Shown: one piece after another, positions 20,352 to 50,515 of the stretch
How positions within the stretch are numbered: position 1 is the stretch's first letter
Layout of the letters: each line of letters starts with the position of its first letter
Virus record (IMG/VR): IMGVR_UViG_3300014208_000024
Coordinates: 256,001-320,000 of that record
Origin: a virus
Taxonomy: Duplodnaviria > Caudoviricetes
Reading direction: 5' to 3' (one strand)
DNA: 64,000 bases
Program-made: the position numbers and the translations under genes
Notes under the pieces: generated by a model
Database searches by the model: none
Seen by the model: only the letters and a program-made list of their open reading frames with translations
Told to the model about the DNA's origin: nothing

Positions 20352-21551
20352 ATGAAACAATACGTTGATTTAATTACAACTATCCTTAAAGAAGGAAGAA
20401 TAAAAACTGATCGCACTGGAACTGGAACTATTTCTACATTTGGACATCAGTCTGTATTTTACATGAAAGACGGATTTCCTCTTTTGACAATGAAAAAAAC
20501 ATATCCCAGAGGAGTTTTTGAAGAGCTTCTATGGTTTCTTAAAGGAGATACAAACATTCGATATCTGAATCAAAAAAAGGTTCACATTTGGGATGAGTGG
20601 GCCTATGCCAAATATAAAAAATACGCAGAATCACTAAGTGAACCAAATTTCGAAATTCACATTGATGATCCAAAAAATAATTGTACAAGGATAATGACAC
20701 TAGAAGAATTTGTAAATGTTATCGTTGATAATGAAGATTTTGCTAAACGTTGGGGAGGGCTGGGTCCTGTTTACGGAAAACAATGGGTTGATTGGGGCGG
20801 ACACCCAGTAAAACGTGAGGAAATATGGAGCGAAGATGATCAGAAGTGGATTAGTTATGAAGTAAGAAAAAAAGGAATAAACCAAATTGAAAATATCATT
20901 GATCGTCTCAAAAGCGTTCCAGACTGCAGAAGACTTATTGTTAGCGCTTGGAATGTTGAAGATCTTGGTGAAATGGCACTTACTCCTTGTCATACAATGT
21001 TTCAGTTTATTACTGAACCTCTAAATTTTAAAGAAAGAGTGGAACTTTTAGAAGAACAAATGGGGGAAGATAAAAGATTTTTAGAGGGTTTGGATACAAA
21101 TGGAGTTAATGGGTGTTTTGCAAAATACAAAACTCCATCATTTAGACTTTCTTTACAGCTCTTTCAAAGAAGTGCAGATACTTTTCTTGGTGTTCCTTTT
21201 AATATTGCTTCTTATGCTCTCTTATTACATATGGTCTCACAAGTAGTAAATATGATTCCTTATAAATTTGTTCATTCTTTTGGAGATGCTCATCTTTATT
21301 TAAATCACAAAGAACAAATTAATGAATTCATACACAGAACACATGAAGCAAAAATAGAAAAAGTTGATTATTGGAAAGAAATCACAAATGGGATACAGCC
21401 TGGGAAAATAACAGGAACTTATTTTGGCCCAAAACTTCCAACTATAAAACTAAACTCAAAAATAAAAGATATTTTTGAATTTACAATAGACGACATCGAA
21501 CTAATAGATTACAATCCGCTTTCAGCAATAAAAGCTCCAATAGCAGTGTAA
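20352..21551 (+). CDS. thyA: Thymidylate synthase with insertions
   Basis: DRTGTGT, ELLWFLKGDTN, IWDEWA, LGPVYGKQW, MALTPCH, QRSADTFLGVPFNIASY, GDAHLYLNH. Confidence 0.97.
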   Translation: MKQYVDLITTILKEGRIKTDRTGTGTISTFGHQSVFYMKDGFPLLTMKKTYPRGVFEELLWFLKGDTNIRYLNQKKVHIWDEWAYAKYKKYAESLSEPNFEIHIDDPKNNCTRIMTLEEFVNVIVDNEDFAKRWGGLGPVYGKQWVDWGGHPVKREEIWSEDDQKWISYEVRKKGINQIENIIDRLKSVPDCRRLIVSAWNVEDLGEMALTPCHTMFQFITEPLNFKERVELLEEQMGEDKRFLEGLDTNGVNGCFAKYKTPSFRLSLQLFQRSADTFLGVPFNIASYALLLHMVSQVVNMIPYKFVHSFGDAHLYLNHKEQINEFIHRTHEAKIEKVDYWKEITNGIQPGKITGTYFGPKLPTIKLNSKIKDIFEFTIDDIELIDYNPLSAIKAPIAV

Positions 21552-40867: not shown

Positions 40868-41965
40868 ATGAAAACTATTTTAGTGGCTATTTCTGGAGGA
40901 ATTTCTGCATACAAAGCTGCAGATGTAATTAGTGGACTTAAACACAATGGATTTGAAGTTCATGTAATTACAACAAAAAACGCATTGGACTTTGTAACCC
41001 CCACTGTTCTCGGAGTAGTATCTGGAGGACACTATGTTACAGATGATAATGTAAATAAAATTGCTCATATTGAAGAAGCTCAAAATTGTGATGCATTCAT
41101 TTGTGTTCCAGCAACAGCAAATATTATTGCGAAATTCGCAATGGGAATTGCTGATGATTTTGTTTCGTCTACTTTTATTGCAATTCCTAATAAAATTCCA
41201 AAAATTATTTGTCCAGCAATGAACACAATAATGTATGAAAACCCCGCTTGTTCTCAAAACCTTAATGTTCTTGAATCTAGAGGATGCTATATTATTGAAC
41301 CTGTTTATGGAGAATTGGCTTGCGGTGTTGTCGGAATAGGAAAACTTCCAAAACCAAGAGATATCGTTAATAAAACAATAGATTTTCTCGATACAAGAAA
41401 GCCATGGCATTGGCCAATTTCTCAAATACCCCAAGGAGTTACTGAAGATTCAAATTCTTTTCTCAGAATAAATATCGAAAGAGAAGTTGAAATACCTGTA
41501 AAATATCATTTCGGAGCTTTTGGTGCAATGAGAAGGTTTGATAGACACAGAGGAGTTGATTTATATGCTCCAGTTGGTACTAAAGTTTCTGCTGTACAAA
41601 AGGGAATTGTAAAAGATATTCGCCCCTGGACAGGAATAAATGCAAATTGTGACTGGTGGAACGATACAGATGCAATTTCTATTGAGGGAGAAGATGGATT
41701 AGTTGTCTATGGAGAAATTAAAGTAAATCCAAAACTTAAAATTGGAAACGAAGTAATGGCTGGAGATTTAATTGGGGAAGTCTTACAAGTTCTTAAAAAA
41801 GACAAAGGTAGACCAACAAGTATGCTTCATTTAGAATTAAGAAAACCTGGATTTTATAAAAACATTGACAAAACATGGAACCAAGATTTGCCAGATGGAT
41901 TACTTGATCCCACTCCATTTTTAATAAGATCAATGAAAAATTATCATCATTTTATAAAAATATAA
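40868..41965 (+). CDS. CoaC-like PPC decarboxylase (HFCD flavoprotein) fused to an M23 peptidase-like domain
   Basis: AISGGISAYKA, AHIE, PATANIIAK, PAMNTIMY, ELACG; then HRGVDLYAPVGTKV, YGEI, MLHLELR. Confidence 0.85.
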   Translation: MKTILVAISGGISAYKAADVISGLKHNGFEVHVITTKNALDFVTPTVLGVVSGGHYVTDDNVNKIAHIEEAQNCDAFICVPATANIIAKFAMGIADDFVSSTFIAIPNKIPKIICPAMNTIMYENPACSQNLNVLESRGCYIIEPVYGELACGVVGIGKLPKPRDIVNKTIDFLDTRKPWHWPISQIPQGVTEDSNSFLRINIEREVEIPVKYHFGAFGAMRRFDRHRGVDLYAPVGTKVSAVQKGIVKDIRPWTGINANCDWWNDTDAISIEGEDGLVVYGEIKVNPKLKIGNEVMAGDLIGEVLQVLKKDKGRPTSMLHLELRKPGFYKNIDKTWNQDLPDGLLDPTPFLIRSMKNYHHFIKI

Positions 41966-41968
41966 TTT

Positions 41969-42250
41969 ATGGAACTAATCTATGACGGTTCAAAAATAAC
42001 AGAAGAACATAAGAAAAAAAGAGGTTTATTTTTTTTGGAAGAACTTTTTGTTGGAAATTTTAACTCAATCAGAGCCCCACTTTCTTTGCGAAAAAAAATG
42101 GATTCTGATGTATTTGAAAACATTGAATTAGATATGAAATGTTTTTTTGGAGTAAAAGATGAGTCAAAAATTGTGTTTAAAAATTATACACACTTTAGAA
42201 AAATTTTAAAAAGATCTGGAATTAGTTTAAAACAATATTTTAAAGAATAA
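41969..42250 (+). CDS. Hypothetical protein
   Basis: 93 aa ORF. Confidence 0.6.
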   Translation: MELIYDGSKITEEHKKKRGLFFLEELFVGNFNSIRAPLSLRKKMDSDVFENIELDMKCFFGVKDESKIVFKNYTHFRKILKRSGISLKQYFKE

Positions 42251-42255
42251 AAATT

Positions 42256-42921
42256 ATGAAAGTTTTAATCACAGCAGGTGGAACCCGTGAGCACATTGAT
42301 GAAGTTAGAGTTTTAACAAACATTAGTACTGGTAAACTTGGTGCTCAAATTGCAGACACATTTTCTTATAACAAAGACCTGGATAAGATATATTACATAT
42401 GCAGTAAAGGGTCACAAATTCCAGAGCGTCCAATTTATGATGTTCCAATAGAAATTATATATGCAGATAGTGTTCAGCAAGTTTACGAAACAATGGAAAA
42501 GCTTGTTCCAAAATGTGATGTCGTAATTCACTCCATGGCAATAAGTGACTTTGGATTTAAAACATCAAATATTAAACTAAAAAGTAATGATCCACAGGCT
42601 TTCATAGATTCCCTTAGAGAGCGTATAGTAGTTAATCCGAAGATTATATCGTTCATAAAGAAATGGAACCCTAAAACGAAGCTTGTTGGCTTTAAATTCG
42701 AAGTTGATAAAACACATGATGAATTGATTGAAATTGCGTTTGAATCTTTGTTAAGAAACGAATGTGATTTTGTTGTTGCAAACGACAAAAAAGAAATGAA
42801 AGATAAGAAAGATCACATAGCTTATATTATTGACAAAAACAAAAATGTCATTGAATGCTCTGGAAAACTTGATATATCACTAAAATTAGTAACCAAAGTA
42901 TTAAAAAAAATAAATCTATAA
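42256..42921 (+). CDS. Phosphopantothenate-cysteine ligase (CoaB-like)
   Basis: VLITAGGTREHIDEVRVLTNISTGKLG, MAISDF, VGFKFE, DFVVAND. Confidence 0.88.
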   Translation: MKVLITAGGTREHIDEVRVLTNISTGKLGAQIADTFSYNKDLDKIYYICSKGSQIPERPIYDVPIEIIYADSVQQVYETMEKLVPKCDVVIHSMAISDFGFKTSNIKLKSNDPQAFIDSLRERIVVNPKIISFIKKWNPKTKLVGFKFEVDKTHDELIEIAFESLLRNECDFVVANDKKEMKDKKDHIAYIIDKNKNVIECSGKLDISLKLVTKVLKKINL

Positions 42922-43787: not shown

Positions 43788-44657
43788 ATGTTTAAAGTTT
43801 TAGGAAAAAAAATTCACGATTTTTTATTTGGAACAAAAGATAAAGAAAAAATTGAAACTCCTACCCCGATTTTTTCTGCCAGTACAAACTTGTATAATAT
43901 ATTCCAAACAAAAGAAACTCAACAAACAGAAGAATTAGAATTTCCACAAGATGATCCAGAGTTTATTAAAAAGTGTAGAGCCGACGACGAAAATTGGGGA
44001 ATTATTAATCAAGTAAATACAGAAAAATTTGAAAGAAAATTGAATTTTAACGATCCTCTTTTGATAAAAGTTGTAAATATCGAAGAAAATCAAGATTCAA
44101 AAATATTCATTTCTCCAAAACAACTTTGTCAACATTTTAATTTAAAACCAAAACAGTTTTATGCTTGGGAAAAATCAGAAAACAAATTATATAACAAAAA
44201 ATATAAATTGGAGATCATAAGTTTTCCAATAGATAAAGAAAAATATTCTATTGAAAAAATAAATTACACAAAAATTTCTGACGAAGAGGGAAAATTAGAT
44301 ATCCATATAATTCCAAAAAAAGGAGTTCAATTTATTCAAACAGATTTTAAAGTTACACCAAGCGGAACATTCTTTGATTCTGGAACTCGTCTTGCAATAA
44401 GAATAAAAAACTTACGGAAAAGAAAATTTATAAGTGTTGCTGAGAAATGTCCAGAACTTATTAAAGAGTGGGATGAACTAAATAACGGAGTTTCAATAGA
44501 TAAAGTTCCTCATGCCTTAAAAGAAAAAGCATTTTGGATTTGTCAACACTGTGGTGCACGATACGAAAGACGTATTGATGATAGAACAAGAAATCCAAAA
44601 CCAGGTTGTACAAAATGTATAAGAAGAAAAAATAATAATAAAAATTATGAAATTTAA
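43788..44657 (+). CDS. Protein with C-terminal DUF4379-type Zn ribbon
   Basis: PELIKEWDELNN..AFWICQHCGARYERRIDDRT..GCTKC. Confidence 0.7.
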   Translation: MFKVLGKKIHDFLFGTKDKEKIETPTPIFSASTNLYNIFQTKETQQTEELEFPQDDPEFIKKCRADDENWGIINQVNTEKFERKLNFNDPLLIKVVNIEENQDSKIFISPKQLCQHFNLKPKQFYAWEKSENKLYNKKYKLEIISFPIDKEKYSIEKINYTKISDEEGKLDIHIIPKKGVQFIQTDFKVTPSGTFFDSGTRLAIRIKNLRKRKFISVAEKCPELIKEWDELNNGVSIDKVPHALKEKAFWICQHCGARYERRIDDRTRNPKPGCTKCIRRKNNNKNYEI

Positions 44658-45444
44658 AGACGAACTCAGGCAAATTAAAAATATCAAAAAAGCTTATGTC
44701 CAATTATGGAAAGGCGATTTTGCAAACGAAGCAACTTATATTGCTTTTATGGGATGTGAATTTCTTAAGATTCCGACACAAAGATTTCACATAGAGGACA
44801 TGGGTACATTAGAAATTGACAAAGATACTGTGGTTTTTGGAGGAGTTACAGCTGTAAGAACTGGATTGTCAATGATTGGAGCAGAACTTCCAAAACCTCT
44901 TGATATTCCAGAAGAACTTTATCCATATACAAAAAGAAATATAAGATTGGGAACTATAAAATCTTTTATGGAAGAAAAAAATTTCCCACTTTTTGTTAAG
45001 CCAAGACTACCAAAATTGTTTACTGGAGCAGTTGTTTGTAGTGCTGAAGAATTAGAATTGTTCAAATATCTTCATACAGATGATTTGGACATGGAAATTA
45101 TGGCCTCTGATGTTGTTAAATTCGTTTCTGAATATAGAACATTTGTTTTGGAAGGACACCCTTATGATTGTAGAAAATATAGCGGAAATCACAGAATAAC
45201 ACCAGATTTCAATTTTATTGAAGAAACTATAAAAGCATATAAAACTGCGCCAGTGGCTTATGGTATTGACTTTGGAGTAACAGACAAAGGGGAAACTATG
45301 TTAATAGAAGCTAATGATGGTTACTCCCTGGGAACTTATGGCTTTGATTGCTATAATTATGTTAGAATGTGCATACTTCGCTGGAATCAAATTCTAAATA
45401 ATGAACAGTTTTTTAAAGAAGGTGATAAAATAGAAATTATGTAA
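44647..45444 (+). CDS. ATP-grasp domain protein (R2K/DUF4343-like)
   Basis: FVKP..KLFTG, SEYRTFV, AYGIDFG, LIEANDGYSLG. Confidence 0.8.
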   Translation: MKFKDELRQIKNIKKAYVQLWKGDFANEATYIAFMGCEFLKIPTQRFHIEDMGTLEIDKDTVVFGGVTAVRTGLSMIGAELPKPLDIPEELYPYTKRNIRLGTIKSFMEEKNFPLFVKPRLPKLFTGAVVCSAEELELFKYLHTDDLDMEIMASDVVKFVSEYRTFVLEGHPYDCRKYSGNHRITPDFNFIEETIKAYKTAPVAYGIDFGVTDKGETMLIEANDGYSLGTYGFDCYNYVRMCILRWNQILNNEQFFKEGDKIEIM

Positions 45445-45839: not shown

Positions 45840-46313
45840 ATGAAAAAGATTATTCTTTTTTTAATTTCAACGTTTATTTTCAACTTTTGTTTTCCTCAAA
45901 ATTATATTGGAAAATGTTCCACTGAAATAATTGTGCAAGAAACGTGGTTGTTGAGCAAAGACTCTACTGAATCATGGGAAAAAAAGAATTTAAAAATAGA
46001 TGTTACAAGACTAAGGAAAGAGGGAAAAATGACAATTCACGATCCTGACAATTTTAAAGTAATTACATGCTATTTTCAAAAAGATACGTGCAATTCATTT
46101 ATGATTGTTTATTATAATCTTAATAGACCATATGTGGAGAAAATGTTAAAGAAAAAATATAACTATAACGGACAGGATTCTTGGATATGTTGTTCAGAAA
46201 ATAAACACATAGAATTATGTTTTATGGAAAATCCAGGAGAAATATTCGTTGTAGAAGTTTGTCATTATTTATCGTCAAATCAAATAATAAAAGAAGGAAA
46301 ATCAAAATTATAA
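45840..46313 (+). CDS. Hypothetical exported protein
   Basis: Signal peptide MKKIILFLISTFIFNFCFPQ. Confidence 0.65.
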   Translation: MKKIILFLISTFIFNFCFPQNYIGKCSTEIIVQETWLLSKDSTESWEKKNLKIDVTRLRKEGKMTIHDPDNFKVITCYFQKDTCNSFMIVYYNLNRPYVEKMLKKKYNYNGQDSWICCSENKHIELCFMENPGEIFVVEVCHYLSSNQIIKEGKSKL

Positions 46314-46317
46314 AATT

Positions 46318-47511
46318 ATGCAATCACAACACATTAAACTAAATGAAATCATTTGGGAAATTACTGGAGAATGTCATAACGGATGTTCATATTGTGGATC
46401 AAAAGAAGTTTGTAAATTAAAAACAAGCCCAGAAACTATTTTAAAAATTGCTGAAGCAATTGCTCAATATCCACCAGAGCAAATTGACATAAGTGGCGGA
46501 GATCCAATTCTTATTGAATATTCAGTCCACAAACAGGTTGTCGATATTTTAAAGGAAAAAAAAGTGATTTGCAAAATTATTGTAAGTCCCAACTCTTTAA
46601 TTATTAATAATGAACCAAATGATAATGCATTCATGGTTATGCAATTTTATGATTGGATTGGAATATCTGTAAACAACAAAAAAGAACTCGAAAAATTTCA
46701 ATCATATCAATTATCTTGCGCTGGAATAAATAAGATAAAAAATTATACAGTTATTACAAACTTTAACATTCAAAACCTTTATGACTTTGATTTAATTGAA
46801 GAATTTGTAAAACAAAATGATAAAATATGGACAATACAATTCACTGTATACAACGATCCATCCAATCCATTGGCATTATATCACCCAGACAACGAAGCTG
46901 CTTTCAACACCTTGAAAGAAAAAGTGGAAAAAAGTACAGCGAAAATCATTCTTTCTGATAACATAAGAAACGACATTGGATGTGGAGCTGGAATTAATTC
47001 AATTGGAATCACTTCTGATGGAACAGTTATTCCTTGTCTATCAATGAGAAGCTGGACAAGCCCACTAAAAGAAAAAGGATTGTTTAATATTCTTTCAACG
47101 CCATTAGAAAAAATTTGGATAAATGGATTTAAAGCACAAAGATTTGGATGTTTTAAATGCTGCAAAGATGCATGCAATAACAAATTTTTGACACAGAAAA
47201 GTGATTTTGAAAAAAAGATGTTTGAGCTAGCTACTCCAACAATAGAGAACAAAGAAATGGATTGGAAAAAATTTCTTGAAGATCTTCAAAAACAAACACC
47301 ACCACAGCCACCATTTAGTCCAATGGAACAAACTGTTATGTACGCAGTACAATTTCCCAGACAACAACAAACTCTAATGTATGCAGTTCCATGCGGAAGA
47401 GGAAACGTATATGCTTATGCGGTTTTTATGGATAGAACTGTTTATGATAACTCTATTCCATTAGATTCTTCGACAAATATATCTTCAACCACCGAACCAG
47501 AAATAAAATGA
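46318..47511 (+). CDS. Radical SAM/SPASM-twitch enzyme with C-terminal xYAV repeat tail
   Basis: WEITGECHNGCSYCGS (CxxxCxxC), ISGGDP, CGAG..GITSDGTVIPC, CFKCCKDAC; tail TVMYAV, TLMYAV, VYAYAV. Confidence 0.88.
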   Translation: MQSQHIKLNEIIWEITGECHNGCSYCGSKEVCKLKTSPETILKIAEAIAQYPPEQIDISGGDPILIEYSVHKQVVDILKEKKVICKIIVSPNSLIINNEPNDNAFMVMQFYDWIGISVNNKKELEKFQSYQLSCAGINKIKNYTVITNFNIQNLYDFDLIEEFVKQNDKIWTIQFTVYNDPSNPLALYHPDNEAAFNTLKEKVEKSTAKIILSDNIRNDIGCGAGINSIGITSDGTVIPCLSMRSWTSPLKEKGLFNILSTPLEKIWINGFKAQRFGCFKCCKDACNNKFLTQKSDFEKKMFELATPTIENKEMDWKKFLEDLQKQTPPQPPFSPMEQTVMYAVQFPRQQQTLMYAVPCGRGNVYAYAVFMDRTVYDNSIPLDSSTNISSTTEPEIK

Positions 47512-47801
47512 AAAAAGAAGACATAGAAAAAATACTTCCACTTTTCAAAAAATATTCTGATAGAGATTTTGATTCCGTTTATATAAAAGGACCAAAAAAA
47601 GCAGAATGGTATTTTCATAAAGGCGAAGATTATTTTCAAATTATAATATTCGAAGAAGATAATTCAGTTTATCAATTAGACACAGAGGCAGATACATTTG
47701 GAATAGAACTTGAAACCATAGAGTCTCTACAAATAAGATTTGAATCATTTACTGGGGAAAAATTAGAAAATATCGATCCATCTTGGGACGAAATAGAATA
47801 A
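47508..47801 (+). CDS. Hypothetical acidic protein
   Basis: 97 aa, ATGA overlap with the rSAM gene. Confidence 0.65.
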   Translation: MKKEDIEKILPLFKKYSDRDFDSVYIKGPKKAEWYFHKGEDYFQIIIFEEDNSVYQLDTEADTFGIELETIESLQIRFESFTGEKLENIDPSWDEIE

Positions 47802-49560: not shown

Positions 49561-49707
49561 ATGAATAAAAAAATTAAAAAAACATTTACATTAGACGAAA
49601 AGATATTTAATGAGTTTTCGATAATTGCCAACAAATTGTCTATCAACAAATCTAAATTTGTTGAAAATAAGATTATAGAATTTATAAAAATTAATAAACA
49701 TGAATAA
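49561..49707 (+). CDS. Ribbon-helix-helix protein, 48 aa, missed by ORF track
   Basis: MNKKIKKTFTLDEKIFNEFSIIANKLSINKSKFVENKIIEFIKINKHE*; overlaps the HEG start. Confidence 0.75.
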   Translation: MNKKIKKTFTLDEKIFNEFSIIANKLSINKSKFVENKIIEFIKINKHE

Positions 49708-50515
49708 AGAATTTTATATTTATGTTTATTTAGATCCAAGAATAATTGGAGAATATAAATATGACAAATATATCTTTAATAATGAACCGTTTTATATAGG
49801 AAAAGGAAGTGGTTTAAGATTTAAAGATCATGTTAAAAAATCTAGGTTAGAGAATAATAAACAAAATTTTCTTAAAAATAGAAAAATAAAATCTATTTTA
49901 AAAGATAATTTGAATCCAATCATAAAAATTATATTTAAATCTACCAATGAAAAGATGGTGCTACTTGAAGAAATTAAAATAATTAAATTAATAGGAAGAA
50001 AAATATTAAATACTGGAACATTAACCAATTTAACTGACGGAGGAGATGGGTGTGAAAATAGATTTATTACTGAAGAGTTTAGAAAAAAACAATCAGACAT
50101 TATGAAAAGTTATTACAAAGCCCATCCACCAACTAAAGAAACAAATGATAAAATAAGCAAAACTTTGCTGAGTAGAAAAATAATTCGCAGCGAAGAAACA
50201 AAAAATAAAATTGGGGTCGCAAATAAAAATAGAAAATTTAGTGATGAATATATAAAAGTTTTAAAAAAAATTAGGAAAGGTCCAAAACTAACACATAGAA
50301 AACATTATAAACTAATATCTCCAGATAATATAATTTTTAATTTTTTAGGGAAAATAGAGTTGACTAAGTTTATTCATGAAAACAATCTTTCTGAAAGAAA
50401 ATTGTTTTCCAACACAAATAAAGGTGCAATTAAACTTAGTGACATCAGAAATGTTACAAATGTTGGGAAAATAAATACTAAAAATTGTGTTGGATGGCAA
50501 TTAATTAAAAAATAA
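49700..50515 (+). mobile_element. GIY-YIG-type (LEM-3-like) homing endonuclease with NUMOD3-like repeats
   Basis: FYIYVYLDPR..PFYIGKGSGLRFKDH..TLTNLTDGGDG; RSEETKNKIG. Confidence 0.85.

Follow-up and report, generated by a model that had tools for sequence, protein, structure and literature searches.

A gene carried by a large phage from groundwater codes for a radical S-adenosylmethionine (SAM) enzyme whose C-terminal tail repeats a short, Tyr-centered motif resembling the target of a peptide-modifying enzyme. The gene lies in a 64,000-nucleotide stretch of DNA, hereafter the window, that spans positions 256,001 to 320,000 of the IMG/VR virus record IMGVR_UViG_3300014208_000024. Its open reading frame (ORF) is open from window position 46318 to 47511 on the plus strand, and the product has 397 residues. 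About 220 homologs carry the motif fused to the same kind of enzyme core. We consider it probable that the tail is modified and that the protein is a self-contained maturase fused to its own multi-site substrate. Splicing of tyramine out of the repeats is the leading chemistry for this modification, a choice that we make tentatively.

A Radical SAM Enzyme with a C-Terminal Repeat Tail

An earlier reading of the window from its letters alone (the original prediction) had described this gene as a splicease-like radical SAM enzyme carrying substrate-like repeats. The ORF and all of the core motifs quoted there (WEITGECHNGCSYCGS, SGGDP, and CGAG..GI..DG...PC, which spans C222 to C240) are present. 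The last Cys cluster (C281/C282/C286) is followed, as had been described, by a charged helix, a Pro/Gln linker, and three xYAV repeats, with the helix predicted at residues 316-326. The features of the gene, in window coordinates, are as follows.

46318..47511, plus strand: whole gene, a radical SAM/truncated-SPASM enzyme with a fused repeat tail (397 residues and a stop codon), from the ORF translation, Pfam, AlphaFold2, and Foldseek
46372..46395, plus strand: CX3CX2C (C19, C23, C26), the radical SAM [4Fe-4S] cluster motif, within WEITGECHNGCSYCGS; unchanged in all 116 homologs aligned
46492..46506, plus strand: SGGDP, residues 59-63, a GGE-type motif and putative SAM-binding site; G60 and G61 are invariant, and conservation of S59, D62, and P63 is 90% or higher
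46981..47175, plus strand: truncated SPASM or twitch-like auxiliary-cluster region (C222-X12-G-X4-C240 ... C281, C282, C286), with a Pfam SPASM match at residues 222-283
47176..47331, plus strand: linker, a charged segment followed by the Pro/Gln-rich TPPQPPFSP; pre-motif composition in the family is K/P/I/E-rich
47263-47295, plus strand: predicted helix in the linker, residues 316-326 (AlphaFold2, predicted local distance difference test [pLDDT] ~66-70)
47332..47349, plus strand: repeat 1, T-V-M-Y342-A-V, then QFP; Y342 is aligned to Tyr in 97% of homologs
47371..47388, plus strand: repeat 2, T-L-M-Y355-A-V, inside a 27-nucleotide DNA direct repeat in common with repeat 1
47407..47424, plus strand: repeat 3, V-Y-A-Y367-A-V, then F, from the translation and shuffle statistics
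47425..47508, plus strand: charged, Ser/Thr/Asn/Asp-rich C-terminal end, residues 370-397 (AlphaFold2 pLDDT 40-47); post-motif composition in the family is T/S/K/D/N-rich

The repeats themselves were correctly recognized in the original prediction, but the spacing given for them, 11-12 residues, was slightly too small: Y342, Y355, and Y367 are separated by 13 and 12 residues. The repeats are visible in the DNA as well, as had been noted. The words ATGTACGCAGT, ATGTATGCAGT, and TATGCGGT are found at them, and the two copies of the 27-nucleotide direct repeat (47327-47353 and 47366-47392, 81% identity) contain repeats 1 and 2. Three Y[GA]V triplets in this 111-residue tail occurred in none of 200,000 shuffles.

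The Tail Motif Is Conserved Across the Family

Homologs were gathered by a word-indexed search and exhaustive phmmer, yielding a family of 189 clusters at 50% identity (E < 1e-30). When 119 homologs were compared, Y[GA]V was found 288 times in 12,375 tail residues, as compared to 5.4 +/- 2.3 times in shuffled tails, and once in the 33,584 residues of the cores. The motif is kept in nearly all representatives at 50% identity, down to 37% identity, and is present in an IMG/VR relative at 29% identity. The survey of homolog tails that the original prediction had called for thus comes out in its favor, with ~220 homologs carrying the repeats. [quoted passage not shown]

Copy number varies widely. 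Among 218 motif-bearing proteins counted, 41 have one copy, 77 have two, 61 have three, 29 have four, seven have five, two have six, and one has seven. The consensus is a Pro-rich stretch followed by [VTI]-x-[VMLA]-Y-[G/A]-V-x-[P/T/S]; the modal spacing is 10-12 residues, and Phe is the most frequent residue after the last repeat. Tyr occupies the central position of 387 contexts out of 389, and Phe, Trp, and His do not occur there at all, despite 700 Phe residues in the tails. Position +2 is nearly as uniform (Val 387, Ile 23, Cys 19), and position -1 is an aliphatic residue (Val, Met, Ala, or Leu) with an information content of 1.96 bits. Position +1 is small, with Gly at 205 sites, Ala at 182, and Ser at 18. 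As read from these sequences, a Tyr-only center flanked by a small residue at +1, Val at +2, and an aliphatic residue at -1 would fit a site of chemistry better than it would fit hydrophobic packing. In two IMG/VR relatives (L016 and L017), the variants MMLYGF and AMRYGF, with Phe at +2, stand ahead of a canonical VTVYAV within one tail, an indication of some drift at that position.

All three repeats of the window protein have Ala at +1, and the original prediction had accordingly described Ala as standing where Gly is usual. This description holds for the protein itself but not for the family, in which the two residues are interchangeable. Position +1 is mixed in 117 proteins, all Gly in 66, and all Ala in 35. 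Because Gly and Ala mix within single proteins, the Ala found here is best seen as a neutral family variant.

The distance from the enzyme core to the motif is also constrained in single-motif members. The segment between the last Cys cluster (CCKD) and the first motif Tyr has a median length of 45 residues, and in 38 single-motif members it measures 34-77 residues and is never shorter than 34. The sole motif of one member (P0073) lies five residues before the C-terminus.

All members of the family are metagenomic. They lie on contigs of at most 0.46 Mb, many of them 80-456 kb and none above 1 Mb; IMG/VR holds 17 loci, and tblastn against 50,697 GenBank phage records returned no family member. 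The source genome is a 372,283-bp IMG/VR virus record with 28.7% GC that CheckV rates as complete. The window has matches to PHROG phage genes, and its phage-type genes include those for thymidylate synthase, tRNA nucleotidyltransferase, RNA ligase, homing endonucleases, and an endolysin-like peptidase. Window DNA was found in groundwater metagenomes, and no RNA dataset was listed as a source of the gene. The phage origin of the gene, as first proposed, is supported by the complete virus record and the PHROG matches.

The Enzyme Core and Its Nearest Relatives

Assignment to the radical SAM enzymes rests on the invariant C19, C23, and C26, the conserved SGGDP, the confidently modeled AlphaFold2 core, and the Foldseek matches to radical SAM structures. 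The Pfam Radical_SAM model (PF04055) scores 27.0 bits, just below its cutoff of 29.5, and the Pfam SPASM model (PF13186) scores 27.5 bits against a cutoff of 21.5. A full-length AlphaFold2 model, built with an alignment of 116 homologs, has pLDDT values above 90 for residues 1-290. Among PDB structures, Foldseek ranks the peptide maturases CteB, PqqE, and SuiB highest (E ~1e-10), with viperin, MoaA, SkfB, anSME, EpeE, and ChlB close behind. The predicted fold is nearest to peptide-modifying radical SAM/SPASM maturases, which would count in favor of a peptide substrate. A profile search of PDB sequences gave weak N-terminal matches alone, to lysine 2,3-aminomutase and MoaA. Matches among AFDB clusters and in the ESM Atlas are to unnamed or generic radical SAM clusters, the nearest Atlas clusters being viral, and the names of NCBI-sourced cluster members are uninformative.

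Canonical SPASM domains contain seven or eight Cys residues (CX9-15GX4C ... CX2CX5CX3C ... C) that bind two auxiliary [4Fe-4S] clusters. The family alignment shows five conserved Cys residues past the radical SAM core (C222, C240, C281, C282, and C286), and the region is therefore assigned as a truncated, twitch-like SPASM domain instead of a full one. Five conserved Cys residues would probably be enough for one auxiliary cluster, not two. The SPASM maturase-like core of the original prediction thus survives as a Pfam SPASM match but probably not as a full SPASM domain. An N-terminal RRE domain is absent, since the protein begins directly with the radical SAM core.

The closest curated model is TIGR04133 (rSAM_w_lipo), which is the top curated model in 113 of 116 members. 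The relationship is remote, at 24-64 bits, with a best score of 63.6 against a cutoff of 425. The alignment extends over the full length, SPASM region included, in some members (residues 5-280 of P0213 with model positions 22-325). The phage genes differ from TIGR04133 in falling below its cutoff and in that no adjacent TIGR04134-type lipoprotein was detected. To our knowledge, no fused Tyr repeats have been described for TIGR04133.

Proposed Mechanism

These results allow us to outline how the protein may work. The N-terminal 290 residues would bind SAM and a [4Fe-4S] cluster through CX3CX2C, and probably one auxiliary cluster through C222, C240, C281, C282, and C286. The disordered tail, held on a flexible linker of at least ~34 residues, would offer each beta-prone [VTI]-x-[VMLA]-Tyr-[Gly/Ala]-Val segment to the substrate cleft, and the site acted upon could belong to the same chain or to a partner subunit, as in borosin precursors. 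A 5'-deoxyadenosyl radical would then start the chemistry at the invariant Tyr. The outcome would most likely be a splicease-type excision of a tyramine equivalent, with a loss of 135 Da per site. The preceding Val, Met, Leu, or Ala would thereby become an alpha-keto-beta-amino (ketoamide) residue, with as many as three such sites in the phage protein and as many as seven in its relatives.

Splicease sites follow the pattern XYG, and validated X residues include Met and Leu (MYG, LYG) (PMC11626197). The splice tags of PlpA3 and PlpA2 are AVAA(M)YGVVFP and PIRPLYGLPI (PMC10533398, Table 1). Repeat 1 of the phage protein (TVMYAVQFP) and the PlpA3 site (AAMYGVVFP) have M-Y-small-V-x-F-P in common. 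The 27 confirmed splicease pairs came from seeking YG-rich peptides beside genes for radical SAM-SPASM enzymes (reviewed in PMC10849128). The known pairs (PlpX/PlpA, RhaX/RhaA, and RcsX/RcsA) resemble the phage protein in combining a radical SAM enzyme and SPASM-type domain with an aliphatic-Tyr-small target, often in several copies. Spliceases are activated by a helix from the leader or the Y protein, and an engineered fusion of the helix to the splicease C-terminus is efficient and leader-independent (PMC11414181). The activating helix of spliceases lies upstream of the core peptide, and the phage protein likewise has its predicted helix at residues 316-326 between core and repeats, which could play the activator role. 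The partial fit to XYG, the likeness to PlpA3, the YG-rich criterion by which spliceases were discovered, and the helix-fusion precedent together with the predicted helix make tyramine splicing our leading hypothesis.

The organization of the two systems differs. Splicease precursors are separate proteins with a Nif11, NHLP, or other leader and are encoded in bacterial gene clusters, whereas in the phage family enzyme and candidate precursor form one chain, neither a Y protein nor an RRE was found, and the genes were found on phage-type or unclassified metagenomic contigs only.

Several observations weigh against tyramine splicing of the tail. The TIGR04103 model (PlpX; IPR026482) scores 25.9 bits on this protein against a cutoff of 725 and aligns only with residues 8-90. 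The best score in the family is 49.9 bits, and over the 116 members the model performs no better than those for viperin, MoaA, or HxsC. The proposal of a PlpX-like enzyme core in the original prediction is therefore not supported, and the nearest model is TIGR04133 instead; by its TIGR04103 profile score, the core is set apart from the PlpX family. Spliceases are described as SPASM enzymes, whereas five auxiliary Cys residues are conserved here. They are also described for XYG sites only, and in the phage family Ala is as common as Gly, replacing the canonical residue in ~46% of motifs and in all three repeats here. A few members (P0150, P0171, and P0204) have no recognizable motif. The near-invariant Val at +2 is a further difficulty, as it fits a Tyr-Val crosslink too.

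Other Possible Reactions on the Same Tail

The same fusion could carry out a different radical SAM reaction. One candidate, of a type known from triceptides, WGK, and mycofactocin, is a three-residue cyclophane or a C-C crosslink that would join Tyr, at the ring or C-alpha, to the beta carbon of Val at +2, with a change of -2 Da. Others are epimerization of a flanking aliphatic residue and C-alpha-C-beta lyase cleavage of the peptidyl Tyr. Taken together, these reactions are somewhat unlikely, and the crosslink is nonetheless a serious rival because the near-invariant Val, as conserved as Tyr itself, suits hydrogen abstraction from a tertiary C-beta. Triceptide, WGK, and streptide-type maturases are radical SAM/SPASM enzymes that act on repeated aromatic-X-X sequences, and Y-[G/A]-V has the same aromatic-small-X3 form as three-residue cyclophane motifs. 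The WgkB model, for a maturase that forms a Trp-Gly-Lys crosslink, is among the weak NCBIfam matches in 34 of 116 members (best E-value 3.4e-11). The structural neighbors include the epimerase EpeE, and SuiB, which forms a Lys-Trp crosslink, is among the top ones. Gly and Ala also replace each other freely at +1, which is not known from spliceases and counts for another reaction.

Against it, no curated model of a crosslinking maturase scores above the generic radical SAM models, and in the phage family no family-specific hidden Markov model similarity was seen to triceptide-type families, which have separate precursors and usually RRE domains. The conserved aliphatic residue at -1 is explained by splicing, in which it becomes the beta-amino acid, and is not needed for a Tyr-Val crosslink. 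The likeness of repeat 1 to the PlpA3 site MYGVVFP favors splicing as well. We know of no description of Tyr-x-Val as a target of crosslinking maturases.

Fusion of an enzyme to its own core peptide has precedents outside the radical SAM enzymes. Autocatalytic borosin precursors of the OphMA type are modified iteratively, with each subunit acting on its dimer partner (PMC8429565), and BURP-domain autocatalytic cyclases are another enzyme-core fusion (PMC12186524). As proposed for the phage protein, both combine enzyme and core in one polypeptide, and the borosin core is C-terminal, after a linker. They rely on SAM-dependent N-methyltransferases or on copper cyclases and come from fungi, plants, and some bacteria; in contrast to the present family, they are not phage-encoded, do not use radical SAM chemistry, and have no Tyr-Gly/Ala-Val repeats. 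A borosin-like architecture, with an enzyme and a C-terminal candidate core in one chain, is thus present in ~220 homologs, as an architectural analogy only, the enzyme class being different.

Possible Non-Substrate Roles of the Repeats

The repeats might instead not be a substrate at all. They would then be a multivalent short linear motif or a pseudosubstrate that gates the enzyme's own active site or docks a host or phage partner, and the real substrate would be a small molecule, a nucleic acid, or another protein. We judge this reading unlikely. It is favored by the predicted disorder of the tail: the AlphaFold2 tails of this protein and of the single-motif member P0194 have pLDDT values of 40-61 with no confident docking. 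A complex prediction of the core (residues 1-300) with SAM, two [4Fe-4S] clusters, and the tail (residues 327-380) gave a score of 0.00, which speaks neither for nor against docking, and as a whole the structure predictions neither favor nor oppose it. The scores of the core against models of viperin and MoaA, which modify nucleotides, are as good as those against peptide maturases, and the few motif-less members would also be accommodated.

Tail ends can carry interaction motifs in this family. The C-termini of five homologs (P0008, P0024, P0026, P0028, and P0167) read ...(E/D)DDLPF, and the acidic protein-binding tip of bacterial single-stranded DNA-binding protein (SSB) is DDDIPF. By this likeness, the tail end in some phages may also recruit SSB-interacting proteins.

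The sequence constraints point the other way. An absolute requirement for Tyr with no Phe, a variable number of copies, and a minimum linker in single-motif members fit a sequence that is directed to an active site, and a pseudosubstrate plug would not call for as many as seven copies. The motif also appears in no other protein of the phage, and no unrelated protein was found to contain it, which would be unusual for a motif that docks host factors. Clustered strict motifs occur in the 372-kb phage genome in this tail only. When 5.8 billion proteins were searched with a profile of 63 tails, at candidate lengths below those of long proteins with other domains (the listed match has 158 residues), the sole match was a fragment of the same family, and no free-standing or differently fused motif protein appeared. 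Of the three motif-less members, the two for which DNA was available have no separate Tyr-Gly peptide beside them. One further ORF of the same genome (G000:C1:81981-83240, minus strand, 420 residues) has four YGV triplets, of which three (TYGVD, NYGVL, and TYGVR) recur at intervals of exactly 23 residues. Without hydrophobic residues at -1 and -3, these triplets suggest a different kind of repeat protein with a 23-residue period, and the ORF was rejected as a substrate candidate.

A purely structural or assembly role for the tail, as beta-strand repeats for oligomerization, aggregation, or targeting into the phage structure that have no relation to catalysis, would agree with the strongly beta-prone alternation of [VTI]-x-[VML]-Y-[GA]-V and with Pro/Gly/Asp/Asn turns at a period of 10-12 residues, but it is highly improbable: beta-strands normally accept Phe for Tyr and Ile for Val, which these repeats do not, AlphaFold2 predicts no folded repeat domain, a single motif five residues from the C-terminus is enough in some members, and the motif occurs only with this enzyme core.

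Neighboring Genes

The family proteins are ~320-450 residues long and, as an enzyme-substrate system, would have no accessory proteins. The gene neighborhoods of five homologs on large contigs (L001-L005) are unrelated to one another and contain no conserved neighbor gene. Within these neighborhoods, no precursor, RRE, protease or peptidase, transporter or exporter, or Y-protein-like gene was found.

Directly upstream of the radical SAM gene, across a 4-nucleotide gap, lies a 157-residue ORF (window 45840-46313, plus strand) with a signal- or lipoprotein-like N-terminus and several Cys residues. It is 55% identical to the gene at the same position in the nearest relative (L001:5528-5986) and is absent from more distant loci. 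The ORF has no family match, and no match to a TIGR04134-type lipoprotein was found in its product or in the other neighbors. Downstream, an acidic 97-residue ORF (window 47508-47801, plus strand) has no family match and is not conserved beside homologs. Its ATG overlaps the stop codon of the radical SAM gene (ATGA), and the two are therefore probably translationally coupled.

Two genes upstream of the radical SAM gene is an R2K-clade ATP-grasp gene (PF18299, E-value 1.7e-39), which is preceded by a gene for a DUF4379 treble-clef zinc finger protein. Enzymes of the R2K ATP-grasp clade are predicted to act as peptide or amide ligases. A few kilobases upstream, in synteny with a 290-kb relative, are a fusion of a Flavoprotein domain (HFCD/CoaC-like) with an M23 peptidase, an ORF of 92-93 residues, and a DFP/CoaB-like gene.

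44647-45444, plus strand: R2K ATP-grasp gene, by Pfam match
43788-44657, plus strand: DUF4379 treble-clef zinc finger gene
40868-42921 of the window and L001:1999-4056: Flavoprotein-M23, 92-93-residue ORF, and DFP/CoaB-like block, by synteny

Close downstream is a GIY-YIG (LEM-3-like) homing-endonuclease-type gene (window 49700-50515, plus strand; PF22945, E-value 2e-10), and the region holds several mobile endonuclease genes. The genome also encodes, elsewhere, a second, unrelated small radical SAM protein of 264 residues with a CTQSCKHCC motif and a Cys-rich N-terminus (G000:C1 at ~20671-21465, minus strand, equivalent to L006:1021-1815, minus strand).

Significance

Enzyme-core fusions are known from borosins and BURP cyclases, and radical SAM peptide maturases are known with separate precursors. 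Our searches of the literature turned up no account of a radical SAM enzyme naturally fused to candidate-substrate repeats, of any such system in a phage, or of a Tyr-Ala site. Leader-independent spliceases have previously needed engineered C-terminal fusions (Piel laboratory; PMC11414181). The phage family would be a natural, compact, single-gene system of enzyme and substrate, with hundreds of variants that differ at the would-be beta-amino position.

Any biological role of a modified tail is putative. A ketoamide or protease-inhibitor function, or autoregulation of the enzyme, as suggested in the original prediction, may be envisaged, and protease inhibition might take place during infection. 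At its most far-reaching, the protein could be self-arming: the radical SAM domain would splice its own disordered, degradation-prone tail, and the resulting alpha-ketoamide warheads, one to seven in number and with side chains of Val, Met, Leu, or Ala, would make the tail a multivalent, covalent-reversible trap for host housekeeping proteases of the ClpP, Lon, or HslV type or for defense-associated proteases in the course of infection. We regard this as very unlikely. If true, the protein would be the first spliceotide encoded by a phage and the first splicease naturally joined to its substrate, and it would represent a new strategy against the host.

Should the tail prove to be unmodified, a strictly Tyr-specific repeat would remain as a highly conserved and unexplained linear motif that is tied to one enzyme family. 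If it is modified, the family would offer a ready set of tools with which ketoamides or crosslinks could be introduced into proteins, the enzymes responsible would be known to occupy far more sequence space than the families explored to date, and Tyr-Ala would join the known sites. Phage biology would then face a new question, namely why a self-modifying protein is conserved by large phages in groundwater and elsewhere.

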